This document shows positions 30,760-61,019 of a stretch of 64,000 bases of DNA, piece after piece. How positions within the stretch are numbered: position 1 is the stretch's first letter; each line of letters opens with the position of its first letter. Position numbers and translations under genes: made by a program. Source of the DNA: Ostreococcus lucimarinus (lineage: Eukaryota); NCBI GenBank assembly GCA_000092065.1, contig CP000582.1, one strand, 5' to 3'. Below the pieces are notes generated by a model. It did not search any database and was not told where the DNA came from. It saw nothing but the letters and a program-made list of their open reading frames with translations.

Positions 30760-32136
30760 TTAGTCTTCAAAGGGTGCAAATATAACGCAAGAATTGTGGC
30801 CACCGAAACCAAAGGAATTACTAATGGCGGCGGTAACCGTGTGCGCCTTCTTTTCGTTTGCACACGTATCGATCCCTTCAACTATCGGTTCCAGTTCGTT
30901 TTGGTTCAGAGTCGGATGCAGCATGCCAGTCTTTATCGCCATGATACAAGCGATGGCTTCCATCCCCCCTGCAGCACCGAGACAATGTCCGATCATTGAT
31001 TTGGTTGCATTCATTTTGACATTTTGTACGTCTTTGAATACCTTGCGAACAGCGTTGACTTCTGCGACGTCGCCGACAAGAGTTGAGGTGGCGTGTGCGT
31101 TGATGTAGTTTATATCTGACACGGAGATACCAGCATCCTTGATGGAAAGCTCTATGCACGTGGATACTCCAAGACCATCGGCTCGTGGATCAGTCATATG
31201 ATGCGCGTCACAGGTGATGGCTCCACCAAGATACTCTGCGTGGATGCGAGCACCACGCTTCTTTGCGCTTTCCAACGTCTCCATGATGAGGACACCAGCA
31301 CCTTCACCCATCACGAATCCATCTCTAGACTTGTCCCAGGGTCGAGAGGCCCCCTCCGGATCATCATTATTTTGGCTGAGAGCTCGACAAGCGACGAAAC
31401 CACCCAGACCAACAGGAATGATGGGTGCTTCAGAGCCACCGGCGATCATGATTTCTGCGTCGCCGTTCCTGATGTGATTGGCTGCCGCGTGAAAGGCGTA
31501 ATTTGCCGTTGCGCAGGCGGTCGAGATAGAATAATTCGGTCCCATAAAACCTTTTTCAATAGCAAGCATTGCACCGCCCATGTTTGTGATGGCATAAGGA
31601 ATGAAAAATGGAGTTATCTTCTTCGGCCCCTTCTCCACGAGTGCTTTCACACCATCCTGGAAAACAGTGAGGCCACCCATACCGCTGCCAACGAGAACAC
31701 CGACGCGTTGTTTATCGAGGTTTTCGAGTGCGGCAGCATCCAGACCTGCATCTTCCAAAGCTTTGTTACCAGACACGAGAGCATAACGAAGACAGTCGTC
31801 AAGTCGTCTATCGTTTTTCTTGTCGATGTAACCCTCGCTGTCGAAATTGCGAATTTGTGCAGCGAATTTCGTTGGAAAGTCACTCGTATCGAATCGATCG
31901 ATCGGCGCAACGCCACTTTGTCCAGAAAGAAGCTTATCGTAGTATGCGGTGTAGTCGTTACCAAACACAGAACATAACCCCATTCCCGTAATCACGACTC
32001 TTTTCTTCGGATCAGTCTCACGTGCCATCGCAATAACGGCGGAACGACATTTTGATCTCCGACATGATGATCTAGGGGTCGCGCGTAAGATATTGTGCGT
32101 TGGTTGCCTACTTGCCAAAGAGTTCATCGCCGTCAA
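30760..32136 (-). CDS. KAS: 3-oxoacyl-[acyl-carrier-protein] synthase I/II (plastid type-II FAS KAS), single exon with transit peptide
   Basis: RVVITGMGLCSVFGNDYTAYYDKLLSGQSGVAPIDRFD, active-site region ISTACATANYAFHAAANHIRNGDAEIMIAGG, HATSTLVGD, GHCLGAAG, NSFGFGGHN; N-terminal ~45 aa are S/R/C-rich. Confidence 0.85.
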   Translation of the reverse strand: MTAMNSLASRQPTHNILRATPRSSCRRSKCRSAVIAMARETDPKKRVVITGMGLCSVFGNDYTAYYDKLLSGQSGVAPIDRFDTSDFPTKFAAQIRNFDSEGYIDKKNDRRLDDCLRYALVSGNKALEDAGLDAAALENLDKQRVGVLVGSGMGGLTVFQDGVKALVEKGPKKITPFFIPYAITNMGGAMLAIEKGFMGPNYSISTACATANYAFHAAANHIRNGDAEIMIAGGSEAPIIPVGLGGFVACRALSQNNDDPEGASRPWDKSRDGFVMGEGAGVLIMETLESAKKRGARIHAEYLGGAITCDAHHMTDPRADGLGVSTCIELSIKDAGISVSDINYINAHATSTLVGDVAEVNAVRKVFKDVQNVKMNATKSMIGHCLGAAGGMEAIACIMAIKTGMLHPTLNQNELEPIVEGIDTCANEKKAHTVTAAISNSFGFGGHNSCVIFAPFED

Positions 32137-33089
32137 TTATATGCCGCTTGAGATTTCTTTGTGGTAGGAGAAGTTGCCTGCGATTGCGAATGGGCGCATT
32201 TCTAGAGTCAGTAATCGTGTGCATGTGCACACATCATCGCGGAGGAACGATAGTCCGCAATTTGCGTCGGCTTTGGTGCCTGGCGCACCGCACGTATGGA
32301 GATAACGTTGACGAAGTGAAATAGATAAGGAAATAGTGATCCTCAGCGGATGACGCGACGCGCGTTTGCGGCACTCTGCAAACACACCGATCGATGGGCG
32401 TACCTCAAGATCACACTGCCCGACGTTCCGGTCCGAACTCGAAGCGTTCAATTGCGGCGGACGTGAAAGCTTCACACTGAGGGTTTGTTCGGCCGACGTT
32501 GGCGCGCGGCTCCATTTTTTCGGTTTTCATACTAGATTTAACCCACAGGATAGCGGAAACTCAAAACGCTCGAGTTGGATTGTTCATTGTGAAAAACATA
32601 CCGCGTTACGTAAAAAAGAATTGGTTTCCCCTGTGATTTGATGATGACTACCGAGCTATCTGTAAACACGAAAGTAACTCGCCGTGCTTTCACTCCGCCC
32701 AAGTCGCACCCAGCCGCGGTTGAAGCGCAAGTGGCACTGAGAGATATGCAGCTAAACTGTGTAGGCTCGATGAACTCGCGGTTGTCGGCCAATTTCAAAA
32801 GTATCTGTCGACTCATCGAAGCTACAGCTAGTACGGGCCGCTCTTATTTCGTACGTATTCCCTTCACTCTCTGATAATTCTCAAGTCTTCGACGTAGACT
32901 CATCCGCTCGATGCGGTTAGTGTATGCAAGGCTTCAAACGAACGTGCAAAGTCGAATTGGCACCGCTGCTCGCCCATAGCAAAGTGGTCAAACGCATTAA
33001 ATGGCTGGATAAGCGGACCGTCCACCAAGCTGAGTTCTCTACCGGGACGTGTTACCGACGTTAGTACTTTGCGCGATAGCACGTACGAA

Positions 33090-34519
33090 GCAGAATTTGT
33101 CCGCACGACACCGAGTTCTAATACTTATTCTCATACTGCGATCTTACCGGGAGTTCGAGGCGTACATCGCCCTAAATCGTATGGAGACAACTTCTCTGTG
33201 AACAGGAAAGGATATCCAATCTGGCCTTAAGTCTCCTGTAATATTGCAATTTTCATTGTACAAACTAGCTCTGCCGTCGTTCTAATCACTAAATTGAAGT
33301 TCACGCTTGCAGCTTCGTGTAAAAGTCGATTTCACGTTCGTAGGTATTTGCGTATTCGGATTCTCAAAGGTAGGCCCCTTGCCAGAGAGCCCCGTTATCT
33401 CTTGAATATTCGCCCAGTCGCCGCGCGTAAAGTTGTAGGTTTGCATCAAATTCAGGACGTCTGGTATACCATCTAGTTCTTTACCCCCTCGAGCTTGACT
33501 AAAAAGCGGACGAGTGAGCAACCGTTTTGTCAAAGAAGCGTACCAGAGGCAAAACTCAAGTTGAGTGCTGCAGCTCCTACCACTTGATCGAAAATGTTGA
33601 TACAACTCTGATAACAGCCGCTGCGATTTTGACTTTGACGACAACTTCCCCAAGAGACTTGGGAATCGATGAGTGTGGCGTTCAGCCTGACCAAATGTTT
33701 CTCTTGAGCCTCTGACGGCAGAGGTTGGCAGGACACATGAAACTATGTTCGCAGGAGGCATCATGGTCCAGTTTTGTGTCTTGTTTATTGTCGTCGCAAA
33801 CACATCTCCTTCTGCTACACGTGACGATGCCGCAGCAACGTGCACAATTCTTTGCAACTCGTTTGTACTGTCTCGCGGGCGCATACACGCATAGTTTTCT
33901 TGAACGAACAGAGGGATCATGTCTGAGTGCTGGAAAACCAGATTAAGCCTCTCATCGAGTGTTTTTAATGGGCTTGGACGAAAAAGAACATCTATTGCTT
34001 GAAAAACACTTGTGGCGACATCTTTTTTCGAAATTTCATTCCTTCCGTGATGCTTCGAGCTCATGCCCCATAGTTGTAGCTGGTTGATACTGGATCGAAG
34101 GTCATTGTTGTTTGCTTCTATGAGAGCATCAACTGCGTCGCTATCAACATCCAAGCGTTGTGAGGCTACAATTTGATTCAAGTACTTTCGGAGCTGGAGC
34201 TTATTTGGCCGTTGGAAAGGTAAATCGACACAATAGTTTGCAAGAGTCTTTAGTTTTTGTGAATATCGGTCGTTGCAGATGCATATGATGGGAATGCGCG
34301 TGTGTTTGATGACTTCTATCAACTCCGAGATACCACCCCGATCGCCACCAGCCATACCATCTACTTCATCCATGATCAGTGCAGTCTTTGTTGATCGCAA
34401 ACCATCAATACCGATGTTACGATTAGTTACAAACTCTCGAACAGTACTCGCCAATGTTCCCGCTATCCCATCACTTACTGCTCCAGTCTTACCTCTTGAA
34501 TCGCTTGCGTTTACGTTCA
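33090..34519. repeat. segmental duplication copy A (1430 bp, 100% identical to 35382-36811 as far as every ORF reads)
   Basis: six identical ORF translations in both copies (e.g. 33294-33476 = 35586-35768; 33527-33715 = 35819-36007); boundaries read from the sequence: left ...gaag|gcagaatttgtccgcacga, right ...gcgtttacgttca|acgacgtgcac. Confidence 0.9.
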
Positions 34520-35141
34520 ACGACGTGCACACGTCGTCGCCGAACAAATACCCCGCCCCTCGAGGGGAAAGCCCCCAGCCGGAGACGTCCTCGGGGTCGC
34601 TCCAAAGCAAATCGCACATCGCGCCTTCGTGCGGCACCTCTTGTTTACGATCGATCGTTCGAATCTGATCGATCGTCGTGATGCTCGGGGACAACCCCCC
34701 GTGCACGCAAAATATCTTGTTATCTATGAGCGCAGACAACGAAAGGTAATCGAACACATCCGTGCAATATCGCCACACGTTGACGCTCCCGTATTTGCGC
34801 AAACACTCGTCGTAAAACCCGTACACCTGCGTGATCTGTCGACACTCGTGATTCCCCCGAATGAGATACATTCGATCCGGGTACCTCACCTTCAGCGCCA
34901 GGAGCAACAAAAACGTCTCCACGCTGTAAAACCCGCGATCGACGAAGTCCCCCATGAACAAATAGTTTGTATCCGGGCAGTCGCCGCCGACTTTAAACAG
35001 TTCCAACAAATCGTAAAACTGCCCGTGAATGTCCCCGCATATCGTCATCGTTTGCTCGTTAATCCACCGCACGCGATCGAAATCGTCGCTCGAAAAGTCA
35101 CGCAGCGACGCCTTCGCGTCCCGCATCGCCGAACACATCAA
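33282..35141 (-). pseudogene. chimeric in-frame ORF: N- and C-truncated PP4-type Ser/Thr phosphatase catalytic fragment (34520-35141, GC-richer) fused at ...[11 protein letters not shown]... to a P-loop-less copy of the RFC1 C-terminal 411 aa (duplication copy A)
   Basis: the PP4c part ([57 protein letters not shown]...[42 protein letters not shown]...[10 protein letters not shown]) lacks the ~50-aa PP4c N-terminus and everything after the GAGY motif; the RFC1 part starts after the Walker A motif. Confidence 0.5.
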
Positions 35142-35403
35142 TGTTGAGCGAAATATCTAACGCGGTGACGCTGTGCGTGAGCGCACCGCTGGATATGTAC
35201 GTCACGCCTGTTTGGCCGATGGCGTGGACGGTGTCTAGGGTGACGTTACCCGACGCCTCGGTGTCGACTCTGCCGTCGATGAGACGCACGGCGGCGGTCA
35301 TGTCCTCCACGGACATGTTGTCGAGCATTAAACGAGTGACGCTGCCCGTCGGGACGTTCGGGTCGTGCAGAATTTGTTCGTGCAGAATTTGTCCGCACGA
35401 CAC
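35141..35403 (-). pseudogene. 3' fragment of a nicotinate-nucleotide pyrophosphorylase (QPRT/NadC) gene, C-terminal ~90 aa plus stop, no upstream exons
   Basis: [65 protein letters not shown] matches the QPRT C-terminal domain (LDNxSxEEM..AV...GRV.LEASGGITL.T....A.TGVDYIS.GALTHS..ALD.SL); GC-rich codon usage unlike the surrounding genes. Confidence 0.5.
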
Positions 35404-36811
35404 CGAGTTCTAATACTTATTCTCATACTGCGATCTTACCGGGAGTTCGAGGCGTACATCGCCCTAAATCGTATGGAGACAACTTCTCTGTGAACAGGAA
35501 AGGATATCCAATCTGGCCTTAAGTCTCCTGTAATATTGCAATTTTCATTGTACAAACTAGCTCTGCCGTCGTTCTAATCACTAAATTGAAGTTCACGCTT
35601 GCAGCTTCGTGTAAAAGTCGATTTCACGTTCGTAGGTATTTGCGTATTCGGATTCTCAAAGGTAGGCCCCTTGCCAGAGAGCCCCGTTATCTCTTGAATA
35701 TTCGCCCAGTCGCCGCGCGTAAAGTTGTAGGTTTGCATCAAATTCAGGACGTCTGGTATACCATCTAGTTCTTTACCCCCTCGAGCTTGACTAAAAAGCG
35801 GACGAGTGAGCAACCGTTTTGTCAAAGAAGCGTACCAGAGGCAAAACTCAAGTTGAGTGCTGCAGCTCCTACCACTTGATCGAAAATGTTGATACAACTC
35901 TGATAACAGCCGCTGCGATTTTGACTTTGACGACAACTTCCCCAAGAGACTTGGGAATCGATGAGTGTGGCGTTCAGCCTGACCAAATGTTTCTCTTGAG
36001 CCTCTGACGGCAGAGGTTGGCAGGACACATGAAACTATGTTCGCAGGAGGCATCATGGTCCAGTTTTGTGTCTTGTTTATTGTCGTCGCAAACACATCTC
36101 CTTCTGCTACACGTGACGATGCCGCAGCAACGTGCACAATTCTTTGCAACTCGTTTGTACTGTCTCGCGGGCGCATACACGCATAGTTTTCTTGAACGAA
36201 CAGAGGGATCATGTCTGAGTGCTGGAAAACCAGATTAAGCCTCTCATCGAGTGTTTTTAATGGGCTTGGACGAAAAAGAACATCTATTGCTTGAAAAACA
36301 CTTGTGGCGACATCTTTTTTCGAAATTTCATTCCTTCCGTGATGCTTCGAGCTCATGCCCCATAGTTGTAGCTGGTTGATACTGGATCGAAGGTCATTGT
36401 TGTTTGCTTCTATGAGAGCATCAACTGCGTCGCTATCAACATCCAAGCGTTGTGAGGCTACAATTTGATTCAAGTACTTTCGGAGCTGGAGCTTATTTGG
36501 CCGTTGGAAAGGTAAATCGACACAATAGTTTGCAAGAGTCTTTAGTTTTTGTGAATATCGGTCGTTGCAGATGCATATGATGGGAATGCGCGTGTGTTTG
36601 ATGACTTCTATCAACTCCGAGATACCACCCCGATCGCCACCAGCCATACCATCTACTTCATCCATGATCAGTGCAGTCTTTGTTGATCGCAAACCATCAA
36701 TACCGATGTTACGATTAGTTACAAACTCTCGAACAGTACTCGCCAATGTTCCCGCTATCCCATCACTTACTGCTCCAGTCTTACCTCTTGAATCGCTTGC
36801 GTTTACGTTCA
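35382..36811. repeat. segmental duplication copy B (source copy, embedded in the RFC1 gene)
   Basis: see copy A; a 15-bp microduplication tcgtgcagaatttgt tcgtgcagaatttgt sits exactly at its left junction (35364-35393). Confidence 0.9.
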
Positions 36812-37070
36812 TCGTTTGAAATCCAAGTTCTCGGCAAATAAGGATGGCACTCGTGGTCTTGCCAATTCCAGGCGCTCCACTTATGAGTATTGCTTTTCGG
36901 GTCGACACTTTTGAAGCTTTTCCTGTGGCTTGATTCCCTGGCCAGTTTGAGAGCCAAGTTCGGAGAGTAGCGATGGCGCTACTATTTCCGACCAAGTCTG
37001 CGAGTACTCTCGGAGAAAATTTGTCAGTCCACAAATTTGCAGAATTTTCTATACCATAGTAGGCATGCAT
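35574..37070 (-). CDS. RFC1: replication factor C large subunit (RFC1), AAA+ module to C-terminus only; N-terminal/BRCT region absent
   Basis: LWTDKFSPR...[37 protein letters not shown]...[17 protein letters not shown]...[15 protein letters not shown]..., C-terminal ...[25 protein letters not shown]...[22 protein letters not shown]; an in-frame stop lies 21 codons upstream of the first Met and no BRCT-encoding exon fits before the GC-rich block. Confidence 0.8.
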   Translation of the reverse strand: MHAYYGIENSANLWTDKFSPRVLADLVGNSSAIATLRTWLSNWPGNQATGKASKVSTRKAILISGAPGIGKTTSAILICRELGFQTMNVNASDSRGKTGAVSDGIAGTLASTVREFVTNRNIGIDGLRSTKTALIMDEVDGMAGGDRGGISELIEVIKHTRIPIICICNDRYSQKLKTLANYCVDLPFQRPNKLQLRKYLNQIVASQRLDVDSDAVDALIEANNNDLRSSINQLQLWGMSSKHHGRNEISKKDVATSVFQAIDVLFRPSPLKTLDERLNLVFQHSDMIPLFVQENYACMRPRDSTNELQRIVHVAAASSRVAEGDVFATTINKTQNWTMMPPANIVSCVLPTSAVRGSRETFGQAERHTHRFPSLLGKLSSKSKSQRLLSELYQHFRSSGRSCSTQLEFCLWYASLTKRLLTRPLFSQARGGKELDGIPDVLNLMQTYNFTRGDWANIQEITGLSGKGPTFENPNTQIPTNVKSTFTRSCKRELQFSD

Positions 37071-37079
37071 AGAAGTCCT

Positions 37080-37260
37080 CGCCAGTTTGCTGGCGGGATA
37101 CTCCTCGAAGCCAACTCTCTTCCTGCTGCTCAGTGGCTCCTATTCAAACTTGTCAAGGCAGTGCGTTTGTGCTTACTTATTATCGTACCATGATGCGCAC
37201 AGTCTTTGTGTCTACGATTCAGTCCAGTGGCGATGCGTATAGCGTTTTCACACCGCGAAC
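37080..37260. other. compositional and architectural junction between the low-GC intron-rich compartment and the high-GC intron-poor compartment
   Basis: abrupt switch to gcgcgc-rich sequence at ~37205; gene structure, codon GC3 and intron density differ on the two sides. Confidence 0.8.
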
Positions 37261-37350
37261 TGCGCCGCTCGACGCGACGCCGCGGCGCCCCTCCGCCGCG
37301 CGTCGAGTCTAAATTTTCACGCCTCTGTACATGGGCTCAAAACGCCCACA

Positions 37351-38238
37351 ATGCGCACATTTACGACCGCGCGACACCGCCGCGCGACCCCGCGCGCGCC
37401 CGCGTCCGCGCGCGCGCGCGCGCGCCCGCGCCGTCCGCGCCGTCCGCGACGCCGATCGATGTCGACCTCGACCGCGACCGCGACGACGACGACGACGGCG
37501 ACGCCGTCGCGCGCGCGCGCGCGCGGACGCGGCGCCGTCGCGCGCGCGTCGTCGTCGTCGTCCGCGTCGTCGTCCGCGCGCGCGCGCGACGCGGACGACG
37601 CGCGGCGCGCGCGCGCGCGCGGGCGCGTGCACGTCATCTGCGGACCGATGTTCGCGGGCAAGACGACGCACCTGATGCGATGCGTCGAGCGCGAGCGCGC
37701 GCGCGGACGGACGGTGTTCGTGATCAAATCCGAGCTCGACGTCGAGCGGTTCGGCGAGGACGCGCGCGACGCGCTGATCGCGCACGACGGGAAGCGCGTG
37801 CGGTTCGACGCGAGCGACGACGGCGGAAGGGTGCGCGCGGTGCGGACGCTGGACGCGGCGGGACTGGGCGCGGACGCGGCGGCGTGCGACGCGGCGGACG
37901 TCGTCGCGGTGGACGAGGCGCAATTCATGGGAGACTTGGCGCCGTTCGCGCGACGGTGCGCGGAGGAGCTGGGACAGACGGTGTACGTGTGCGGGTTGGA
38001 CGGGGATTACAGGCGGGAGAGGTTCGGGGGGGTGTTGGATTTGATTCCGCTGTGCGACACGGTGACGCGATTGAGAGGGACGTGCGCGGAGTGCGGAGAC
38101 GAGAGTTTATTCAGTCGACGCGTCGAGGCGAGCGAGGACGTGGTGCGCGTGGGAGGGAGGGATAAGTACGCGCCCGTGTGTCGAGCGTGTTACGTCGCGG
38201 CGTCGACGCGGGAGAGAGGGTCGGCGTCGGCGCGGTGA
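37351..38238 (+). CDS. TK1: thymidine kinase (TK1 type) with a long Ala/Arg/Ser-rich N-terminal extension (true start uncertain)
   Basis: VICGPMFAGKTTHLMRCVERE (P-loop), VVAVDEAQFM, VYVCGLDGDYRRERFG, zinc-ribbon CAECGDESLFSRR...YAPVCRACY. Confidence 0.75.
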   Translation: MRTFTTARHRRATPRAPASARARARPRRPRRPRRRSMSTSTATATTTTTATPSRARARGRGAVARASSSSSASSSARARDADDARRARARGRVHVICGPMFAGKTTHLMRCVERERARGRTVFVIKSELDVERFGEDARDALIAHDGKRVRFDASDDGGRVRAVRTLDAAGLGADAAACDAADVVAVDEAQFMGDLAPFARRCAEELGQTVYVCGLDGDYRRERFGGVLDLIPLCDTVTRLRGTCAECGDESLFSRRVEASEDVVRVGGRDKYAPVCRACYVAASTRERGSASAR

Positions 38239-38338
38239 ACGGGACGCGTGTAATCGATAAATCGTACCGGTGGCTATTCACGTTTCGCTAATCGTATCGT
38301 TTCTTCGTTCGTCGCCTCGCTCGAGGCGCGCGCGCGTC

Positions 38339-41300
38339 CTAAAATTTTAATCGTTTCTTCGACGCCGGTTTCGCCGCCTTTTGCGCGGAGTTGACGGCGC
38401 GCTTTTTCGACGTCGTCACGCCCGCGGAGCGCAAGCCCGGCAGCGAGGCGTCTTCGTCGTTTTCGTCCTGGTCGTCGTCTTCGTCTTCCTCTTCGTCGTC
38501 GTCGTCGTCCACCACGACGGCTGCGCGACGTCGACGTCGGCTCGCTGGAGTCCCCGGAGTCGCCTCGGCGTCGGCGTCGGCGTCGGCCTGCGTCTTCGTC
38601 GCGCGCTTCCGGCCTCGCTTCGTCGCCGTTTCTTTGAACATGTCTTCGGCGAAATCGCTCGCGTCGCGAGTCATGAGATCGCGGAACGTGTCGACCGCGC
38701 GCCGAGCCGAGCCGTAGGATTGTCCAGCGGTTGCGTCGACAATACCGGTCTCAAATTTCACGGTATCGTCGAATTTCACGACTTCTGCGTTTCTCGTCGC
38801 CTCCGTGGGGACGTACGACGCCACGCGAGCGTCGGACAACTCGTACGCCTTCTTGACGTGAGATTTGAGCAACAAAACGACGCTCAGCGCACACGCGAGT
38901 TCGACGTCGCTCTTGAATTCGTTATCTGGCACCGCATCGTCCGCCTTGGCCGCCGACGCTTCCACGCCCTTCGTGAGCTGTTCGAGCAACAAGCCGCCCT
39001 TGAGCGATATGACGCGATTGAGCTGAAAGACGACGTAGAGAGTCTCATCCACTGATGTGAACGGAAGCTCGGTGACGACGCTCGCTAGGAATCGCAAGAA
39101 TAGCGCATCGGACGATCCGCTCGTGGTTTCAAACCGACGCAAAAGAGTGTTCAAGAACGCGTTTCGGGACGTTCTAGACGAGTTCACCAAGCTGTAGACA
39201 AACGCGAAACCGTCCGAGGCGTCGGCGATTTTCTTTTGCCCGCTTTCGCTTCTTCTAGCCGCCGTTTCCAGACGCTTCTTGAAAGAGTACGCAAGCTCGA
39301 CGCCGTGAGTGAGCTGATGCTCAAAAAAGTCACCGTGTCGTTGAACTTGCGCCTTCAGGAGCTTACGCGCGAGACGCTTAACGCTCGGCACTGGGTCGAT
39401 TTGTAGCGCGATGAGCGTGGGGAACGCGCTTGCCGGGTGAACCAAGCCTTGACGAAGGACCACCTCGACTAAATGCAAGCCTTTCAACCGCACGCTGTAC
39501 GCGGAGTCGACGCAAAGCGCTAAAACATCTGTCCAATATCGTTGCGCGATACCGCCGGCGATAGAACGATCACTCTGGCCGTTGACGACTTGCAATTTTT
39601 CCGCGTCTCGCGAGCGCTTTTGCGCCGACTTGAGCACCGAAGCCTTAGTGGAAGCGTTGACTTCATTGGCCGCCGCCGATCCACTCGTCGCAGTCATACG
39701 AAATTCTTCCTCTCGAATGAGCTCGCTGAGATTCGTCAGCGCCTGCTCCTTCAAGCCACGCTCGGCGCTGGATGCCAACGCGGCTCGCATGATGGAATCA
39801 AAGCTTCCTTTGCCGAAACCGCCGTCGCGATTAAACATGAGTTCTGGTCGAGCGACGAACAAGTCTCCGCACGCCCCGAGCGCTCCACGAGTGAGATCGT
39901 ACTCTTCTGCAGGCTGAGACTCCAGGGTCTTGCGGAAGACTCGAAGAAGATCCTGAATCGAGATATCGCATTCACCATTTTCGACGGCCGCGTCCACGAC
40001 GTCGGCTCCAAATCGCGCAATATTACCCAATACGTACAGCGAACGCGCGCAGTGCGATTTGTTCTGAACGCTCAACGCTTCATCACTAGATATGGATTCG
40101 ATGACGATGGCAACGAATCGTTTCAGCATAGACATCGTTCCACTATCCTTACCGCCGCGAGTCTCCGCCACGGCGCACAACGTCTTACACGCGTAATAAA
40201 TGACAGCTTTGTCGTGATGGCGGAGTAAGAGGATGCGCAAGTCTCGTTCGATCTCTTTCGCAATCGGCGCTGGAAGACGACCAGCGTGTTTCGCAACAAT
40301 ATGCACGACGGACATGCAGCACTGGAGCTTCTCACCGACGAAAGGCGCGTCGTCGTCGACCCGCTTCAGATACGGCTGGAGCGCCACGGCGAAATACGAT
40401 GGGTCGCGTTTCGGAAGGCAGAGACACGGATCGACGACGGTCAGAATGTGGAGACCGAGTGCGTACTTGACGCTCATCGGCACCGACTTCGACGTGCCCG
40501 GCTCGTCTTTCACGACCACGCCATTGTGTGCTCCGTTCGATTTGACTCGTTCACCGTTTGGCGCGCGACTTTGCTCGTCGGATTCGCTCTCGATGAGCGC
40601 GTGCAACACCTGCACCGATAAACGCTTCGCTACCTTTCGCATACCGCGAACATTGACCCATGCATCAACCTTCTCGTCTTCGCTCGGATACAGCACCGCG
40701 CTGATGATCGCAACGACCGGAAACGTGGGAAGTAAAGGAAGCTTTTGTTTGCCGCTTCGGGAAACGAGTCGGTAGACGCCCCAAGCGACGGAGACCATTT
40801 GCCGCGCGCGAATCGCGATTGGATCATTATCCTCGATACCATCATGCCCAACGGTGGCTAAGTGCGCCGTAGATGCGTCTTCGTCATCACTGCCATTGTT
40901 TCCGTCCCCATCATCTTCGTCGTCATCGTGTTCATCGTCGGCTTCGTCTTCCAATGCAACCGGTGAAAACCAAAGCTCGCGAAAAATCTTCACAACGTGC
41001 GAACGGATCGTTTCTTCTTCATCCAGTATGCGAAACGCCAACACTTGCATCGCCTTATCCGCTTTAGTAAAGTCAGGATTACGCAGGCATTCTTGCAGGG
41101 TGGAAACCACGCGCTTGCGCACAGATACACCGACGTCGGATACGCGGTCTTCAATCAAGTCGTAGTACTTTTCGGCAAGACTGACGTTTCGCACCATCTG
41201 TCTGCCGATGACATCCACCACGGCGGCTCGCACGGACGATCCCGTATCTTTCAATCGGATTTTCAGCGCGCGAACGATATCCGGAGACTCTAACAGTTTC

Positions 41301-43762
41301 GGGTCTTCGTTCACGATACCACCGATTGCTCTTGTCGCTGATGTGCGCACCAAGACGCTCGCGTCATCGAGCATAGCCGTCACGCGCTGCACGAGCACGT
41401 CGAGCTGTCTTGCCAACGGTCGTCGAGCGTTGAGTTGAAGACACAAAGACTTGGCGAGCTCGCGCGGAAGTCCAGCCAGCGAGCCATTTGTAGCCTTTTT
41501 CGCAGTGTCCGCGACTCGCACCATGCTAGCGTGCAGAGCTGCGTACATCGCCCGCGAACCGCCAGCGACGACTTCTTGACGAAAACCGACGCCCGCGCGC
41601 TCAGCGTCCCGCGCAAACTGACACAAATGGTACGATACTGCGGAAGTGTTGAGCGTCACACGCGAATGAGACGCCGTATCGTCCGACATCCTCGCGCCTT
41701 CACGCGGTGCTGCGCCATTTTCGTCGTCTTCATCCGCGTCGTCGTCGCGAGTAAACGTCGTTGAAGACGGGCCTCGATTGTTCTCTGCCAAATAGCGCGC
41801 GATAATCGATTCCATCGCAAAAATATCCGCACTCGCCTCGTCGGCCTGCACCAACGCACTTTCCGTTTGCGCGTCGACTCGAGTTCGAACGCGCGCTGCG
41901 TCTTGATGAGCAAACATGACCGCTTTTTCGTGCAGCGTCTCGGCGTTTGACGTAAATTCTAAATCCTCCGCGCGTGGCAACTCGCGCCAGAACGCATCCT
42001 CCTCTACTGCTTTCGAGTCAGCGCGAAGTTTTGATGCGATTTGACCAAGGAAATCGAGCGCAATCTCGCGAATCTTGGAGTCTTTGCACTGCAGACCGGC
42101 AGACCCGAGCAGGTTCCCGGCGAGATTGAGCACAAGCAAGTTTGCCACGGGCCATTCGGGAAGGTTTCTGCATGTGAGCGCGTCCACGAGAGCGTTGTGG
42201 ATCACCGCGCGTATCTGACGCTCGTGTTCCGCCGCTTTCACCTTCGGCCACCTCGTCAGCAAATCTTTCCAAAAGTAGTTCGTCCAGTAAAACGCCGATC
42301 CAAACGCACGCGCGTGCACGTCTGTCGTCATTTCACCTTCTTTATCCGCCTTGGGCATTGTCGCTTCGTCGTCGGAAAATTCCACCGTGGCTTGGAAACA
42401 CTGCATCAACAGAGCGAGCAAGACTTGGATTTGCACTGAGTCTTCGCCTGGGACGTTAAAACATCGCACGCTACGCCCCTCAGTCGGAAGTTTCATGAGA
42501 GACGACAGAATATTGTCCACGACGAAGCCTCTGTGCTCAGAGTATTGCGTAAAAATGCTCGACACGAGTTCGACGGACTTGAGTTGCACAAAGCTCACGT
42601 CCTCAATTTCGAACGCCGAGAACGCCAAAGACGTCAGCTGCAGTACCGTCGCATCTGGAAGTGCGAGGAGGGAAATCAAATTGGCCAAGTGCGTGAAAAT
42701 GACGCCTATTTTCGCCCCCAACATTTTTGCTACCTTGTATCCCCCGCTGCCTGATTTCTTCGACGATGAGGGCGGCGGCGGCGCCGAGACGCCCTTACTC
42801 TTGCTGGCCGGTGTCTTCTTTTTCCCATCTTGCTCGACGTCATCTCCGTCTTCGTCACTGCCGCGATGAACGTTCCACATGCCGGCATCGTAAAAGACGA
42901 AGACATTCCGCACCAAGTGTTGCCTCGCGCACTCGATCATCTCGTCGATGCCTTCCTCGCGATAAATCTCCTTCGGCATGTCCGTCGCCGCCAATATGAC
43001 AAAGTACGCCCCGATAGCTTCCAACGATTTCAACACACGCTGTGCGTCGGCACCTCTGTACTGCGCGTTCGCGGCGATCAACGTTTCGTTCGCGCTCTTT
43101 GCGACTCGCTCCAACATTGACAGCGTCTTGACTAAATCTCGTTTCCCGACGCCCTTCAACAACCCGCGTTCTCGCAACAATTCACATCTCGAGCTAAAGT
43201 CGCGAAGTTCGCTCAGCATCACGGCGCCAGATGCGTCGTCCATGTCGTCGCCAGCGCTCGCGTCTTCATCATCCAATTCAATCCTGTCGCACAAATCTTC
43301 CGCCGCGCGCACAAAGTCTGCCACCAGCGCCTCGCCGTCTATCGACGTCACCAACTCCGTCGTCGTCATGACACTCTGCGGCGCCGCGATCGCACGCGCG
43401 ACTTCTTTACCCCTCGATCGCCCGACGTCATCCTCTCCATCCTCCATCGCGTCCGCGCTACCCTGAATCATCCCCGTCGACGCGTTCGTCGCCGCCGCGG
43501 GCAGCGTCGCGTTCGCTCGAACCGTCACGCACGCCTCGTCTCCCATCGCCTCCACGATCTTCGCCGTCATCGGGCAGTGCACCGCGTCTGTTTTCGCATA
43601 TTTTCGTTTCGCTCGCATCAGCGTCGTCGACCTATCGCATCGTCGTTTCGCGCGTCGTCCGTCCGTCAGTCGCTCGCTCGCTCGCTCGCTCGCTCGCCTC
43701 GCCTCGCCAATCGCATCCGTCCCCCTTCCGTCATCGCGCGCGCCTCGCTTCGCTCGACGCAC
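38339..43762 (-). CDS. SCC2: sister-chromatid cohesion protein 2 / Nipped-B-like cohesin loader, intronless ~1750-1800 aa (true start probably an internal Met at ~43570-43620)
   Basis: HEAT-repeat block SVRTSATRAIGGIVNEDPKLLESPDIVRALKIRLKDTGSSVRAAVVDVIGRQMV...VGVSVRKRVVSTLQECL...VKIFRELWF characteristic of SCC2/NIPBL; acidic and basic C-terminal tail; contains (GGCGTC)n and (GTC)n coding repeats. Confidence 0.65.
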   Translation of the reverse strand: MRRAKRGARDDGRGTDAIGEARRASERASERLTDGRRAKRRCDRSTTLMRAKRKYAKTDAVHCPMTAKIVEAMGDEACVTVRANATLPAAATNASTGMIQGSADAMEDGEDDVGRSRGKEVARAIAAPQSVMTTTELVTSIDGEALVADFVRAAEDLCDRIELDDEDASAGDDMDDASGAVMLSELRDFSSRCELLRERGLLKGVGKRDLVKTLSMLERVAKSANETLIAANAQYRGADAQRVLKSLEAIGAYFVILAATDMPKEIYREEGIDEMIECARQHLVRNVFVFYDAGMWNVHRGSDEDGDDVEQDGKKKTPASKSKGVSAPPPPSSSKKSGSGGYKVAKMLGAKIGVIFTHLANLISLLALPDATVLQLTSLAFSAFEIEDVSFVQLKSVELVSSIFTQYSEHRGFVVDNILSSLMKLPTEGRSVRCFNVPGEDSVQIQVLLALLMQCFQATVEFSDDEATMPKADKEGEMTTDVHARAFGSAFYWTNYFWKDLLTRWPKVKAAEHERQIRAVIHNALVDALTCRNLPEWPVANLLVLNLAGNLLGSAGLQCKDSKIREIALDFLGQIASKLRADSKAVEEDAFWRELPRAEDLEFTSNAETLHEKAVMFAHQDAARVRTRVDAQTESALVQADEASADIFAMESIIARYLAENNRGPSSTTFTRDDDADEDDENGAAPREGARMSDDTASHSRVTLNTSAVSYHLCQFARDAERAGVGFRQEVVAGGSRAMYAALHASMVRVADTAKKATNGSLAGLPRELAKSLCLQLNARRPLARQLDVLVQRVTAMLDDASVLVRTSATRAIGGIVNEDPKLLESPDIVRALKIRLKDTGSSVRAAVVDVIGRQMVRNVSLAEKYYDLIEDRVSDVGVSVRKRVVSTLQECLRNPDFTKADKAMQVLAFRILDEEETIRSHVVKIFRELWFSPVALEDEADDEHDDDEDDGDGNNGSDDEDASTAHLATVGHDGIEDNDPIAIRARQMVSVAWGVYRLVSRSGKQKLPLLPTFPVVAIISAVLYPSEDEKVDAWVNVRGMRKVAKRLSVQVLHALIESESDEQSRAPNGERVKSNGAHNGVVVKDEPGTSKSVPMSVKYALGLHILTVVDPCLCLPKRDPSYFAVALQPYLKRVDDDAPFVGEKLQCCMSVVHIVAKHAGRLPAPIAKEIERDLRILLLRHHDKAVIYYACKTLCAVAETRGGKDSGTMSMLKRFVAIVIESISSDEALSVQNKSHCARSLYVLGNIARFGADVVDAAVENGECDISIQDLLRVFRKTLESQPAEEYDLTRGALGACGDLFVARPELMFNRDGGFGKGSFDSIMRAALASSAERGLKEQALTNLSELIREEEFRMTATSGSAAANEVNASTKASVLKSAQKRSRDAEKLQVVNGQSDRSIAGGIAQRYWTDVLALCVDSAYSVRLKGLHLVEVVLRQGLVHPASAFPTLIALQIDPVPSVKRLARKLLKAQVQRHGDFFEHQLTHGVELAYSFKKRLETAARRSESGQKKIADASDGFAFVYSLVNSSRTSRNAFLNTLLRRFETTSGSSDALFLRFLASVVTELPFTSVDETLYVVFQLNRVISLKGGLLLEQLTKGVEASAAKADDAVPDNEFKSDVELACALSVVLLLKSHVKKAYELSDARVASYVPTEATRNAEVVKFDDTVKFETGIVDATAGQSYGSARRAVDTFRDLMTRDASDFAEDMFKETATKRGRKRATKTQADADADAEATPGTPASRRRRRAAVVVDDDDDEEEDEDDDQDENDEDASLPGLRSAGVTTSKKRAVNSAQKAAKPASKKRLKF
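38567..38594. repeat. (GGCGTC)n hexanucleotide repeat inside the SCC2 CDS (encodes DADADADA on the minus strand)
   Basis: ggcgtcggcgtcggcgtcggcgtcggcc seen directly. Confidence 0.85.
43660..43707. repeat. (TCGC)n microsatellite in the SCC2 5' region
   Basis: gtcgctcgctcgctcgctcgctcgctcgcctcgcctcgcc seen directly. Confidence 0.85.
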
Positions 43763-44104
43763 AGGTACGACACATCACACGTCTCCAGCAGCGCGCCGAT
43801 CGCTCGCGCGAGCGCCACGGAGCCCTCATCGTCGCCTTCGAGCGTCGCATCCGTCGACCATCGCTCGCCATCGCGTTCGACGTCGTCGGACGCCGCGAGC
43901 GCGACGTGCGAGGCGTCGACGCTCGGCAGCGCGCCGCAGACCGCGAGGTGATGTTCACCCGGACCGATCGCGGTGAACCGCGGGTGCGTCGCGCGCGCGG
44001 TACCCATGGCGTCGCGGTGTGACGATCGCGGGTGGTTTGAACTCGAGTTTTGGCGGGAAGCCGACGCCGACGCCGACGAGCGACGATTCGATTACACAAT
44101 TCTG

Positions 44105-45426
44105 CTAACGCTTGCGCTTCTTCTTCTTGGAAGAGGGCCAGAGAACGACGAAACCGCGACCCGGGACGTGATCGAGCGGGTGGAACGCGCCGGATTTGCG
44201 CTGGGCGGGATTCTTGCTCTTGGCGTCGTAACCGCGCACGGGGACGTAACACTTGCGAGCGAAGAGACGACGCTCGAGGTCGTCGGAGGACGCGCGCGCG
44301 GACGCGGACGCGGGCGCGGGCGCGGGCGCGGTGAAAGCGTCGTGGGTCATAACCGGAGCCAAACCCTCGAGCGCGGCGATCGGGTTGACGTCCACGGAGG
44401 TGCCGAGGAAGATTTCTTCGGGCTCGGTCGACGGCGGAAGGTCGCCGCCCCACGCGCGCACCTCGTCTTGCGTCATGAACCAACAGCACTCGATCATCAT
44501 CGATTTATCGTCGTCCTCGAAGCATCGCTGGATTTGAGCCAAGTACATGTTCTCCGTCGTGCGCTCGGGGAGGCAGTAGACGCAGTCGCCGTTTCTGAAC
44601 TCGACGCCCTCGCGACGGAAGCCTTCGTAAAACGTTCTATCGCGCCTGACGCCATCCTTCTTCCCTTCGCCGATCCAACTCACGAGCGCCAAGTGATTCC
44701 CAGCCTTTTCGTTCGCTAAATCCTTTCGTCTCTTCTTCACCACCGTCGTCGCCGCCGCCGTCTTGCCGCCCGCGCCCTCGGCGGTTGACTTCGCCTTGGC
44801 CTCCGCGCGCGCCCTCTCCTTCTCCGCCAACTCCGCCAACGGATTCGCCGTCCGCGGCGCCCGTCGCTTTTCCGGCGACGCCGCCGCTTCCCCGAACACC
44901 TTCTCCCTCGGCGCCTCGTCCGCGCCCTGCGTCTCCCGACACATCCGCAGCACCTCCCGCACGCTCGCGTGCGGCGCGCGTCGCCGCCGTTCCTTCCCCT
45001 TCCGCGCCTCCCCCCCCGTCCCCAACCACGACCTCGGCGGCCTGTACTCGCGCCCAGGGAAATCAAATATCGTCTCTCGCATCTCCTCTCGCGTCGCCGT
45101 CGCCCCCAACGCGTCCTCCGCGTCCGTCCGCTTCGTCCCGCTCGCGCTCGTCCTCGTCGTCCACCCCCCGTTCCCGTCCCTCCCCGCCGCCGCTCGCATC
45201 GCCTCGTACGCGCTCCGCTCGCGCGCGTGATCGACGTCGCCCTCCATCAGCGACTTCCGCGCGCGCTCGCACGTCATCTTCGTCAGCGCGTCCGCGACCT
45301 CGCGCGCGGTGACGCCGTCGCTGCCGCTCAGGATGCATCGCGCGGCGACGGACAGGATCGTCTCCGTCGCGCGCGGCGGCACGTCGAGCGGCGTCGGCGG
45401 CGCGCCGCGATCGTTCGCATCGCGTC
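44105..45426 (-). CDS. BAH (bromo-adjacent homology) domain chromatin protein (~440 aa; the 713-aa ORF's 5' part overlaps NudC antisense and is rejected)
   Basis: C-terminal BAH domain FYEGFRREGVEFRNGDCVYCLPERTTENMYLAQIQRCFEDDDKSMMIECCWFMTQDEVRAWGGDL...EEIFLGTSVDVNPIAALEGL...RKCYVPV; K/R-rich end KKKKRKR; start taken at MRRDANDRG. Confidence 0.5.
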
Positions 45427-45533
45427 GCATCGCGTATGGCGATCGCGCGCGCGGCGTCGCGCGGTGACGACGCGATTCAGCGACGACCGGGACGACGACC
45501 GGGACGCGGTTTGAATCCGCACACGCGCGCGCG

Positions 45534-47180
45534 ATGCGCGGCGCGAGCGCGGCGCGAGCGCGCGCGGTGCGACGCGGTGCGACGCGCGCGGCGTCGAACG
45601 CGGGCGCGCGATCGAGAGCGCGGGCGCGGGAAAATCCGCGAACGGCGGTCGAGCGCACGACGCTGCGGTACGACGGCCACGCGCGCGTCGACGGCGACGC
45701 CGCGGGACGCGCCGGGAGGGGCGACGCGATCGCGCGCGAGCGTGGGTCGGTCGCGTTCGCGTGCTCGGCGAGCGGGAGCGAGGTGCTGTGCGCGTCGAGG
45801 GACGGTGAGGGGTGGGAGGCGGCGTACGCGCCGACGGCGACGCTGCGGGACGGGGACGCGAGGGCGGATTTCGACGACGCGGCGAGCGCGGTGTACGTCG
45901 GGAGAGACCTGAGACGGGGAAAACGAGGGGTGTTCGCGATGGTGCTTCGGGGGGGGGAGGCGGGAGAGCGCGCGATGCGAGCGGCGTTCGAGGCGGCGGC
46001 GCCGGCGGGGACGAGGTTCGCGATGAAAAACGTCAAGCGAGCGACGGCGAGTTTCGAGGACGAGATCGACGCGGCGATCGTCGCGAACGGCGCGGCGCTG
46101 ATTGGATGGGGCGGGAGACAAAAGTTTTGTCGAAATTGCGGCGCGGCGAGGCCGAAAATCGTAAAGGGTGGGAGTAAGGCGACGTGTCGCGAGTGCGGGC
46201 GGAGCGCGTATCCCGAGTTGATGCCGTGCTGTTTGGCGCTGATCACCTGCGGTAATTACGTTTTGCTCGGACGAAATGCGAAATGGCCCAAGAACTTTTA
46301 CTCTTTACTCGCGGGGTTCGTCGAGGGGAGCGAGAGTTTGGAGGCGTGCGTCGCGCGCGAGGCGCTGGAGGAGGCATCCATCGTCGTCGACGCGTCGTCG
46401 GTGGAGTACATCGCGAGTCAACCGTGGCCGTTTCCGAACCAGTTGATGATGGGATTTCGCGCCGATGTCGCGCCGGAACGTCTAGGGCCGTTGAAAATGC
46501 CGCCAGAACCGAAGATGATCGACGGCGAACTCGCAGACGCGCGATGGTTTCACGTTGATTACCTCGCAGCGCGACTGTCGCCAGAGCGCGCCTTCGCCGA
46601 TCCGAGGGGCGGCGACGACGACGACGCCATTCCTTTCGGCGAGATCGCGCTTCCCGGCGAACACGCGCTGGCGAGAGTTCTGGTGCAGAACTGGGTGGAT
46701 GAGAAAATGATGTACAGAAGACGAAGATGCGACGATCGACTCGTGACCACGGTCGTGGAGGGATCGTTTTTCACCGAATGCGAATTAGCCAGCTTTGACG
46801 ACGACAAGGGCGACGCGTTTGTCTTTGAGAACGATAACGGGGAACTACAAGATTTGGCTTTGCACTTTGTCATGGTGGAAGTATTGCTTGCGCAAGAAGG
46901 TCAGGCACCCGTCGTCTTTCGCGCGGCACCGGGCGACGTATCCGCAATTCGCGAAGACGTCGTCGCAGAAGTCGAACGCGTGGGCCAAGGCGCTCGAGCC
47001 ATCGCCTTCGTGCGCGCGACGGGTCGAATTAAGTGCAAGCGTCGGTCGGATGGCGTGCAGTCCATACGCATCACAATGCTTAGCGAAGCGAGCGATGATG
47101 GGTTCGACGCGCGTCGATGCGTCGTCGCCATGCTTCAGAAAGCTTGTCCTTTCCACCTGTACGAGTTTGACCAGCCGTAG
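45534..47180 (+). CDS. NUDC: NADH pyrophosphatase (NudC/NUDT12-type Nudix hydrolase) with a C-terminal extension of unknown function; start uncertain
   Basis: NudC N-terminal domain, zinc ribbon FCRNCGAARPKIVKGGSKATCRECG, Nudix box LLAGFVEGSESLEACVAREALEEASI, SQPWPFPNQLMMGF. Confidence 0.65.
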   Translation: MRGASAARARAVRRGATRAASNAGARSRARARENPRTAVERTTLRYDGHARVDGDAAGRAGRGDAIARERGSVAFACSASGSEVLCASRDGEGWEAAYAPTATLRDGDARADFDDAASAVYVGRDLRRGKRGVFAMVLRGGEAGERAMRAAFEAAAPAGTRFAMKNVKRATASFEDEIDAAIVANGAALIGWGGRQKFCRNCGAARPKIVKGGSKATCRECGRSAYPELMPCCLALITCGNYVLLGRNAKWPKNFYSLLAGFVEGSESLEACVAREALEEASIVVDASSVEYIASQPWPFPNQLMMGFRADVAPERLGPLKMPPEPKMIDGELADARWFHVDYLAARLSPERAFADPRGGDDDDAIPFGEIALPGEHALARVLVQNWVDEKMMYRRRRCDDRLVTTVVEGSFFTECELASFDDDKGDAFVFENDNGELQDLALHFVMVEVLLAQEGQAPVVFRAAPGDVSAIREDVVAEVERVGQGARAIAFVRATGRIKCKRRSDGVQSIRITMLSEASDDGFDARRCVVAMLQKACPFHLYEFDQP

Positions 47181-47207
47181 CAGTCATGTCGTTCTGTTTT
47201 TGGAGTT

Positions 47208-60829: not shown

Positions 60830-61019
60830 AGCGAAAGCTTGAAAACTGAACGAAAGCTCTCACAGCGCCCTCGCGTTCCCGCACTCGCGCGCGCTCGATG
60901 TGATGGGCGCCGAGCGCCCCGTGCAAGCAGCACCGAAAGTGAAGCCAAAGCTTGAAAACTGAACGAAAGCTCTCACAGCGCCCTCGCGTTCTCGCACTCG
61001 CGCGCGCTCGATGTGATGG
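60795..61019. repeat. 2 x ~112-bp tandem duplication (2 mismatches) spanning the E3-ligase stop codon, the whole intergenic spacer and the first bases of ureF
   Basis: cgccgagcgccccgtgcaagcagcaccgaaagtgaagc[g/c]aaagcttgaaaactgaacgaaagctctcacagcgccctcgcgttc[c/t]cgcactcgcgcgcgctcgatgtgatgg occurs twice back to back. Confidence 0.85.

Follow-up and report, generated by a model that had tools for sequence, protein, structure and literature searches.

The window, a stretch of 64,000 nucleotides from Ostreococcus lucimarinus CCE9901 chromosome 2 that lies at a low-GC/high-GC boundary, contains a 1430-bp segment of the RFC1 locus, here called X, in two identical direct copies that bracket an island made of pieces of other genes. 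We propose, with moderate confidence, that this X-island-X arrangement is a real structural mutation that arose very recently and is private to the CCE9901 lineage, of the kind known as a 'cycle of templated insertions'. Because the arrangement is missing from all wild relatives, it is either a very recent repair accident of the CCE9901 strain or a cloning or assembly error. The features are listed in Table 1.

A reading of the letters by themselves (the sequence-only reading) had already described a perfect direct duplication, and base-level comparison bears this out. Exact-match extension gives 1430/1430 bp (100% identity) with no difference between the copies, and in the flanks beyond them identity drops at once to ~25%. 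The copies lie head to tail with one novel junction region, the outer flanks of X-island-X are collinear with wild-type contigs, and self-BLAST of the whole window found no other long repeat save a 113-bp tandem at 60794-61019. Copy B and the unduplicated 5' part together make up an intact 498-aa RFC1 (XP_001416472.1; ORF 35574-37070), which matches O. lucimarinus CCE9901 ABO94765.1 exactly and carries the Pfam domains AAA, AAA_lid_RFC1 and RFC1; the same continuity of copy B with the 5' part is seen in 14/14 wild contigs. Copy A is continuous with wild-type downstream DNA and the KAS gene, and its only annotation in GenBank is a 114-aa 'predicted protein, partial' (ABO94763.1). Since GenBank places gene models on both copies, X-island-X belongs to the released, finished sequence.

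Table 1. Features of the duplicated RFC1 locus and the island (window coordinates)
Feature	Position	Strand	Content
Copy A of X	33090..34519	-	RFC1 codons 88-498, stop 33282-33284, 3' flank
Chimeric 619-aa ORF (predicted)	33282..35141	-	orphan piece + PP4c 48-222 + RFC1 88-498
PP4c catalytic-subunit fragment, 528 bp	34520..35047	-	codons 48-222 of 305
Orphan piece, 85 bp	35048..35132	-	matches neither QPRT nor PP4c donor
QPRT (nicotinate-nucleotide pyrophosphorylase) fragment, 234 bp	35133..35366	-	Pfam QRPTase_C, E=1e-17
Junction 'stutter', extra 15 nt	35367..35381	-	11 nt of X end (GCAGAATTTGT) + 4 nt of QPRT end (TCGT)
Copy B of X	35382..36811	-	RFC1 codons 88-498, stop 35574-35576, 192 nt 3' flank
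RFC1 ORF 5' part, unduplicated	36812..37070	-	M1-M87, incl. Walker A GAPGIGKT

The island (34520-35381) is GC-richer, as had been noticed, at 56.1% GC against 45.6% in copy A, but measures 862 bp rather than the ~880 bp first estimated, and this length is fully accounted for by the QPRT fragment (234 bp), the orphan piece (85 bp), the PP4c fragment (528 bp) and the stutter (15 nt). Its composition is indeed like that of the GC-rich compartment, with a GC3 of ~0.74 compared with 0.43 for RFC1. The three gene identities also stand, Pfam returning the RFC1 C-terminal domain, Metallophos (PP2A/PP4-type) and QRPTase_C. The PP4c piece, correctly recognized as a core missing both ends, lacks the N-terminal 47 and the C-terminal 83 residues and keeps the GDIHG, GDxVDRG and GNHE motifs; it was aligned to XP_001417307.1 and is identical at 528/528 positions to four loci (L001, L027-L029). 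The second piece is a QPRT 3' fragment as proposed, yet instead of ~90 codons and a stop it holds 2 nt, the last 77 codons and, of the TAA stop, just its first base; what looked like the QPRT stop, at 35098, falls in the unrelated 85-bp piece. This fragment is identical at 234/234 positions to five loci (L012, L013, L024-L026), of which L024-L026 encode exactly the CCE9901 QPRT, XP_001417018.1. The zero divergence of copy from copy and of fragment from donor counts against a real event in so far as an artefact would give the same outcome.

The 85-bp piece is open in the PP4c frame, with a third-position GC of ~79% by hand count. A word-index search of proteins yielded 0 candidates for it and HMMER, run exhaustively over 1.84 billion representatives, 0 matches; Pfam, E. 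coli genomes, plasmids and viral contigs gave none, nor did two 24-29-mers in bacterial and archaeal genomes, nor its k-mers in all fetched loci, both donor loci included.

Where did the island come from? BLASTN and TBLASTN located no donor for it inside the window. Each of the two identified fragments has an intact, single-copy counterpart gene in the same species, to which it is 100% identical, and the full-length genes are present in CCE9901 (XP_001417307.1 for PP4c, XP_001417018.1 for QPRT). Intact donor genes exist, but in the wild loci QPRT and PP4c are not neighbours. In contigs 99.6-100% identical to the island fragments, a Vps15-like kinase of 1381-1393 aa lies 105-140 bp downstream of QPRT, PP4c sits between an ankyrin/TPR gene on one side and a methyltransferase gene on the other, and no PP4c occurs within 12.6 kb of QPRT. 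QPRT-PP4c adjacency is ruled out by these wild loci and by the M. commoda locus, unless the neighbourhood is rearranged in CCE9901 in a way seen in none of the wild contigs. The earlier idea that the island copies gene-end/gene-start packing of the GC-rich compartment thus fails, and capture of a contiguous QPRT-PP4c pair as a whole has a negligible probability in our estimate. The two fragments are in tandem and in the same orientation, at a spacing superficially like a compact intergenic region; however, the spacer is foreign to both loci and the PP4c piece begins at codon 48, not at a start codon. Judged by sequence, the island strings together fragments from at least three independent donors, since the QPRT and PP4c neighbourhoods are separate and the 85-bp spacer belongs to neither. 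The RFC1, PP4c and QPRT regions are distinct and, judging by the contigs, unlinked. Their largest recorded contigs measure 895,087 bp, 931,964 bp and 982,987 bp, respectively, and the fact that those of PP4c and QPRT differ suggests that the two donors lie on different chromosomes.

The junctions bear on the mechanism. At J1, between X and QPRT, X ends in TTCTGc and the QPRT donor reads TTCTGg, a match at 5/6 nt. J2b and J3 each show a short CG match followed by one terminal mismatch, with 1-2 nt of microhomology, and outside J1 microhomology is minimal, at 0-2 nt. The 15-bp microduplication reported at the left junction of copy B is present: TCGTGCAGAATTTGT occurs twice, at 35363-35377 and 35378-35392, straddling the primary X/QPRT junction. 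In base-level alignment all seven QPRT donors (L012, L013, L015, L016, L024-L026) read ...GGGTCGT followed by CCAGAAGCG. Because the tandem unit combines 4 nt of QPRT with 11 nt of X, a polymerase is needed and ligation of fragments does not explain it. The 3' breakpoint of the PP4c piece coincides with the end of the palindrome ACGACGTgtgcACGTCGT, which has a 7-bp stem; the other breakpoints have no hairpin, and the overall fold is no better than that of shuffled sequence.

From these features we infer that a polymerase drove the event, by MMBIR/FoSTeS or Pol-theta-type joining, that synthesis ran in the direction given here, and that the product sits in the chromosome and has become fixed in the strain. 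While copying RFC1 (minus strand, 5' to 3'), a nascent strand would have left its template 192 nt beyond the stop codon and re-primed on QPRT through the TTCTG microhomology, its terminal base mismatched. One stutter at this re-priming would have produced the 15-bp duplication that straddles the junction. The strand would then have copied 234 nt, finishing where the QPRT coding sequence ends, switched to a further template for 85 nt and to PP4c for 528 nt, stopping at the end of the small hairpin-forming palindrome, before returning to RFC1 1430 bp behind its departure point, so that X was re-replicated. A return to a point 1.43 kb away and in the same orientation fits a replication or repair event centred on the locus. 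By the published definition, a templated insertion is a 'cycle' when the host segment is re-replicated on the return of the string (PMC7025897). Here, one contiguous host segment is duplicated head to tail with a single novel junction region, and the inserted PP4c and QPRT pieces are copies of loci that stay intact. Recent ectopic capture by break repair or template switching, the class of mechanism named by the sequence-only reading, is still the best one.

The main competitor, and a serious one, is a cloning or finishing artefact of the 2007 Sanger assembly, to which we assign an appreciable but smaller share of belief. A chimeric subclone would have carried small fragments from several loci, flanked on either side by a stretch of the RFC1 region, and the assembler, in reconciling this clone with normal reads, would have placed X twice; a small-insert 'shatter' library of pooled hard-to-sequence clones is a possible source. 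Pooled shatter libraries were reportedly used in JGI/Stanford finishing. All 14 of the independent environmental contigs compared (14/14), which are 99.7-100% identical, have a single X and lack the island, although the JGI samples with 100% identical contigs could be either CCE9901 cultures or natural populations. One of the 14 belongs to an assembly that has contigs of chromosome scale and indel-type differences, which we took as long-read data. The J3 32-mer has 0 matches in JGI metagenome contigs. The structure is therefore missing from 14/14 near-identical wild contigs and from all collections searched, as an artefact would be, and the X copies and fragments are 100% identical to their sources. 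Pieces of 85, 234 and 528 bp and an 862-bp island would suit small-insert subclones, and since the island is about as long as one Sanger read, one aberrant clone might in principle be all that supports it. A (CG)n/palindrome cluster at 37363-37717, 560 bp from the duplicated locus, is moreover the type of region that needs special finishing, and many assemblies break there. However, the junction-straddling tandem and the 5-nt microhomology at J1 are left unexplained by ligation. Unless the pool was tiny, it is very unlikely that a chimera put together at random from five pieces would take both outer ones from one locus, 1.4 kb apart and equally oriented, and assemblers usually collapse duplications, not make them. 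Vector, E. coli and other bacterial sequence is absent, and the filler gave no E. coli, plasmid, viral or bacterial match. Absence from the 14/14 wild contigs is compatible with an artefact and is no proof of one.

An RNA-templated origin seems improbable to us. A reverse transcriptase would have jumped among the RFC1, PP4c, third and QPRT mRNAs and back to the RFC1 mRNA, either in vivo, where a retrotransposon enzyme made a cDNA whose homologous ends let it recombine into RFC1, or in vitro, as a cDNA clone contaminating the assembly. All four identifiable or presumptive pieces are indeed sense on the same strand and the identified ones are all exonic, but concordant orientation alone has a chance probability of ~1/8, and in a gene-dense genome exonic pieces are to be expected in any case. 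The QPRT piece stops at the end of the coding sequence, and one breakpoint lies at a hairpin, a structure at which reverse transcriptases pause. The end of X falls inside the presumptive RFC1 3' UTR; L017, the one transcript-like contig, ends 13 nt beyond the stop codon. The low-GC region of Mamiellales is also rich in transposons (bioRxiv 10.1101/2025.04.21.649811). Against this, no junction bears a poly(A) remnant and no TGTAA or AATAAA signal lies near the X end. Intron loss, which would be diagnostic, is not visible because the donor segments are intronless.

Still less credible is the capture of gene fragments by a mobile element of the Helitron or Pack-MULE type, or the re-integration, in one crossover, of a 2292-bp extrachromosomal circle made up of X and the island; we regard both as very improbable. 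Helitron and Pack-MULE cargo typically consists of same-orientation multi-gene patchworks such as the island, and integration of a circle by one crossover gives X-insert-X exactly. Yet the island has no terminal inverted repeats or other transposon termini at its ends and, X aside, no target-site duplication; no transposase, Rep or helicase is found nearby, and neither the window nor the wild contigs hold a second copy of the island. An element with an RFC1 fragment as cargo would also need to insert precisely in register into the gene from which that fragment came, and the formation of a patchwork circle would merely shift the question. A broader conjecture, which we consider unlikely, is that the edge of the low-GC outlier block of chromosome 2 is a site of replication-fork collapse, which Ostreococcus repairs by cancer-like cycles of templated insertions that import GC-rich genic pieces from other chromosomes and make chimeric ORFs. 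The (CG)n/palindrome cluster lies 0.5 kb from X. If this conjecture were true, it would describe a natural route for foreign genic DNA into the outlier region.

What does the arrangement do to the genes it touches? The in-frame join of PP4c to RFC1 is real and gives the 619-aa ORF foreseen from the letters, whose start codons come from the orphan piece. It lacks the C-terminal third of PP4c and the RFC1 Walker A motif. As a predicted product it is without essential parts of both parents, and it has no evident promoter. The exact ORF, its start variants and seven other junction-spanning ORFs are absent from a collection of 15 billion proteins, and a search with junction-spanning peptides returned separate PP4c and RFC1 matches and the 114-aa partial model only. 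X-island-X is most likely functionally neutral, because RFC1 and its 3' flank are intact, the KAS gene is untouched and the chimeric ORF has no evident promoter.

What are the implications? If the cycle of templated insertions is real, a free-living unicellular alga offers a natural example, resolved in full, with several donors, base-level junctions and an in-frame chimeric ORF, at the boundary of the enigmatic low-GC outlier region, and a class of copy-and-paste repair defined in human tumours would also be at work in a minimal green lineage. It would provide a concrete mechanism that moves genic DNA between GC compartments. If instead the structure is an artefact, chromosome 2 of the much-used CCE9901 reference includes 2.3 kb of sequence that is false, along with gene models that are spurious: ABO94763.1 (the 'partial' RFC1), and probably also the model between it and RFC1, would be spurious and a correction would be due. 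In either case, the model of a contiguous QPRT-PP4c donor needs replacement.

The closest parallels are the cycles of templated insertions described by PCAWG (Li et al. 2020, PMC7025897), in which, as here, the string returns to its host, leaves a tandem duplication and keeps the donors intact. Those arise somatically in human tumours, and their segments usually range from kilobases to megabases, whereas here the segments are 85-528 bp and the duplication 1.4 kb, in a clonally propagated unicellular green alga, and the structure is known from the assembly alone. Complex duplications by FoSTeS/MMBIR, and chromoanasynthesis, were reportedly set out by Lee, Carvalho and Lupski in 2007 and by Hastings et al. 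in 2009. They share with our structure serial switches, short or imperfect microhomology, copy gain and a return behind the departure point. Classical FoSTeS/MMBIR uses nearby templates in one chromosome arm and often produces inversions; in contrast, the donors identified here are unlinked to RFC1 or, judging by the contigs, to each other, and all pieces are in direct orientation.

In C. elegans helq-1 mutants, tandem duplications arise spontaneously that span 0.1-10 kb (median ~1 kb) and have junctions typical of Pol-theta-mediated end joining (TMEJ), iterative primer-template switching leaves repeated stretches at TMEJ junctions, and plants, in which HELQ is missing, show especially complex patchwork insertions (PMC8654963). 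The 15-bp stutter at J1 resembles such junction repeats. What TMEJ inserts normally measures tens of nucleotides and derives from DNA flanking the break, unlike the 234-528-bp copies that would here come from other chromosomes. Capture of DNA at double-strand breaks is known from yeast and plants ('filler DNA'), and Dna2-deficient yeast acquires large multi-donor insertions. As here, such ectopic capture joins 0.1-1.5-kb pieces from several unlinked loci at one junction with little or no microhomology, but alone it makes no flanking 1.4-kb duplication, and an unequal sister-chromatid join would be needed too. Within the genus, rearrangements of the SOC of O. mediterraneus have been attributed to NHEJ with 0-4-nt microhomology (PMC13390643). 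They comprise large translocations and deletions on a small outlier chromosome under viral selection, whereas the event here spans 2.3 kb and sits on chromosome 2, where the low-GC block has its edge; nevertheless, they too join DNA of different chromosomes.

On the minus strand, a 1430-bp segment of RFC1 (X) is present twice, and base-by-base match extension aligned its two copies with 0 mismatches; just outside both ends of X identity drops to ~25%. The perfect duplication claimed by the sequence-only reading thus holds at base level, the in-frame join of a PP4-type phosphatase (PP4c) to RFC1 and the 15-bp microduplication that it described are present in the sequence, and Pfam agrees with its naming of RFC1, PP4c and quinolinate phosphoribosyltransferase (QPRT). 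Whole-window self-comparison found no other long repeat in the 64 kb besides a tandem of two 113-bp units, 98% identical, at 60794-61019 in the GC-rich part. The DNA between the two copies, the island, has a GC content of 56.1% versus 45.6% for X, and a GC3 of ~0.74 versus 0.43 for RFC1. Along the window GC shifts from ~47% to ~64% at roughly 37.1-37.2 kb, between RFC1 and a divergent thymidine kinase gene (37351-38238, plus strand); RFC1 is the final gene on the low-GC side, and the window lies at the border of the low-GC outlier block of chromosome 2.

Features of the duplicated RFC1 locus and its island (L-numbers are loci fetched from public assemblies)
Feature	Coordinates	Strand	Description
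X, copy A	33090-34519	-	1430 bp
X, copy B	35382-36811	-	1430 bp
Island	34520-35381		862 bp, DNA between the two X copies
PP4c piece	34520-35047	-	528/528 identical to PP4c gene in L001, L027-L029
Orphan piece	35048-35132	-	85 bp between PP4c and QPRT pieces
QPRT piece	35133-35366	-	234/234 identical to QPRT gene in L012, L013, L024-L026
Junction stutter	35367-35381	-	11 nt repeating X end + 4 nt repeating QPRT-piece end
RFC1 ORF, 498 aa	35574-37070	-	Pfam AAA, RFC1-lid, RFC1 C-terminal domains
Chimeric ORF, 619 aa	33282-35141	-	Pfam Metallophos, then RFC1 C-terminal domain
QPRT-fragment ORF	35098-35403	-	Pfam QRPTase_C

Where does the island come from? Its pieces (528 + 85 + 234 + 15 bp) add up to its full length, and among the 29 loci fetched from public assemblies 14 are of donor type. 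The PP4c piece equals codons 48-222 of XP_001417307.1 (305 aa); the QPRT piece holds the last 77 codons and ends one base into TAA, and L024-L026 encode exactly the CCE9901 QPRT, XP_001417018.1. The sequence-only reading saw here a captured gene-end/gene-start pair, an interpretation that has to be abandoned. In wild contigs a Vps15-like kinase gene (1381-1393 aa) lies 105-140 bp downstream of QPRT, and there is no PP4c within 12.6 kb; PP4c has an ankyrin/TPR gene on one side and a methyltransferase gene on the other, an arrangement similar in Micromonas commoda; and the longest records for the RFC1, PP4c and QPRT proteins differ in length (895,087, 931,964 and 982,987 bp). The donors thus do not adjoin one another, and the island strings together three or more independent fragments; what that reading observed stands, and its interpretation does so only in part. 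The orphan piece matched neither the PP4c nor the QPRT donor, nor any of the 29 fetched loci, and no source for it emerged from protein searches, Pfam, E. coli genomes, plasmids, viral contigs, or bacterial or archaeal genomes. With its open PP4c reading frame and a third-position GC of ~79% by hand count in that frame, it resembles coding sequence from the GC-rich compartment. A biological event would imply a donor for it elsewhere in the CCE9901 genome.

The junctions were read on the minus strand, 5' to 3'. At J1 (X/QPRT), X ends in ACAAATTCTGC and the QPRT donor reads GCGCTTCTGG followed across the breakpoint by ACGACCC; five of the six final bases are common (TTCTG) and the terminal base is mismatched. 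The product, ACGA-ACAAATTCTGC-ACGACCC, implies that the new junction was copied twice, and from the composition of the stutter it follows that the 15-bp microduplication is a tandem copy of the primary X/QPRT junction itself. At J2a (QPRT/orphan) the QPRT piece terminates at the GTGT of GATGTGT, before AA. At J2b (orphan/PP4c) the orphan ends in AACGA and PP4c is preceded by GCCGG, with CG common and then a terminal mismatch; at J3 (PP4c/X), PP4c ends in ACGTCGT(T) and wild-type X is preceded by AACGA(T), sharing CG and one T. The PP4c breakpoint coincides with the last base of a palindrome, ACGACGT-GTGC-ACGTCGT. A polymerase, not a ligase, is the likelier origin, given the 5-nt microhomology at J1 and the 15-bp duplication that straddles this junction; that the chain comes back to its starting locus, with orientation unchanged, favours an event centred on that locus. 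The island shows neither terminal inverted repeats nor a poly(A) tract or poly(A) signal, and we regard mobile-element or circle models as highly improbable. An RNA-templated origin of the patchwork would explain the sense orientation of all pieces; however, with poly(A) absent and donor segments that contain no introns, we consider it unlikely.

The exact RFC1 ORF is present in 79 blocks of public assemblies. Fourteen contigs from ENA, Tara and JGI samples (L004-L011, L018-L023) were examined; all are 99.7-100% identical to the window, and in all of them the 5' part of RFC1 leads into a single X, then into the downstream DNA and KAS, and the island is missing. One sample, with chromosome-scale contigs and indel-type differences, was taken to indicate long-read data. 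JGI metagenome contigs do not contain the J3 32-mer, and no record was found of the chimeric ORF, of seven further ORFs that span a junction, or of any protein that does so. On this evidence the arrangement is private to the CCE9901 reference sequence. The main rival, which we rate as less likely than a real event, is an aberrant clone incorporated into the Sanger assembly. All observations are compatible with it as well: it would fit the perfect identities, an island the length of one read, fragment sizes as in small-insert subclones, the adjoining hard-to-sequence GC repeat and the lack of the structure in every other assembly. Against it, the stutter is of polymerase type, microhomology is present, vector or bacterial sequence is absent, and a five-piece chimera coming back to the same locus is improbable. 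Read-level data for CCE9901 exist: SRR847306 (bisulfite-seq), SRR847307 (MNase-seq) and SRR847308 (RNA-seq), listed in bioRxiv 10.1101/2025.04.21.649811. The 'metagenome' samples JGI 3300047157 (L006, a 360-kb contig) and JGI 3300046167 (L007, 63 kb; L029, 932 kb) hold chromosome-scale O. lucimarinus contigs that are virtually the same as CCE9901 but have the wild-type RFC1 arrangement; were these samples CCE9901 cultures, not field populations, they would speak strongly against a duplication fixed in the strain. Compared with window positions 31990-47290, L004, L005 and L008 are 99.96-100% identical on the low-GC side (~2.5 kb each) and 99.66-99.86% identical in longer alignments, mostly on the GC-rich side, where most of their differences from CCE9901 appear to lie.

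Does the rearrangement affect RFC1? The 498-aa ORF is exactly equal to XP_001416472.1 (ABO94765.1) of O. lucimarinus CCE9901; intact RFC1 retains 192 nt of 3' flank, and the region upstream of KAS is retained as well. The chimeric ORF has neither the RFC1 Walker A motif nor the C-terminal third of PP4c, and no evident promoter. The functional consequence of duplication and island is probably neutral. If real, perfect direct repeats of 1.43 kb would be expected to be lost again through recombination. The copy-A region (33282-34519) is annotated in the same record as RFC1 as ABO94763.1, a 114-aa 'predicted protein, partial', and the numbering ABO94763.1-ABO94765.1 implies one further model between the two, presumably on the island. 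Whether the structure is real or an artefact, the copy-A and island gene models would be spurious or pseudogenic. At the other end of the gene, the transcript-like Logan contig L017 (SRR17264770) joins 37214-37188 directly to 37140 onwards, which implies a ~47-nt intron (37141-37187) and an N-terminal extension of RFC1 to 540 aa (protein P0135) versus the annotated 498 aa; its first 228 nt have no counterpart in the window or among the fetched loci.

We lean towards a real structural event in CCE9901, a multi-donor template-switch duplication. Short copies from unlinked loci would have been strung together at a single insertion site, and the string would have rejoined the host chromosome 1.43 kb behind its departure point, so that the host segment was replicated twice while the donor loci were left intact. 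In the RFC1/thymidine kinase spacer, (CG)n runs and imperfect palindromes are densely clustered at 37363-37717, and the short-read metagenome contigs L006, L007 and L009-L011 start at 37230-37490, at or just below the low-coordinate edge of this cluster. The cluster is plausibly a fork-stalling element, and may be linked to the event. FoSTeS/MMBIR denotes replication-based template switching, and we class the structure alongside it. The 'cycle of templated insertions' is defined by an inserted string, a re-replicated host segment and intact donors (PMC7025897), and the layout seen here matches all three properties. It is likewise classed alongside tandem duplications sealed by Pol-theta-type joining, in which iterative primer-template switching leaves 'patchwork' junctions, reportedly of special complexity in plants (PMC8654963). 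The structure adds one more case to a known class of structural variants, or is an error in the reference genome; it is not a new biological system.
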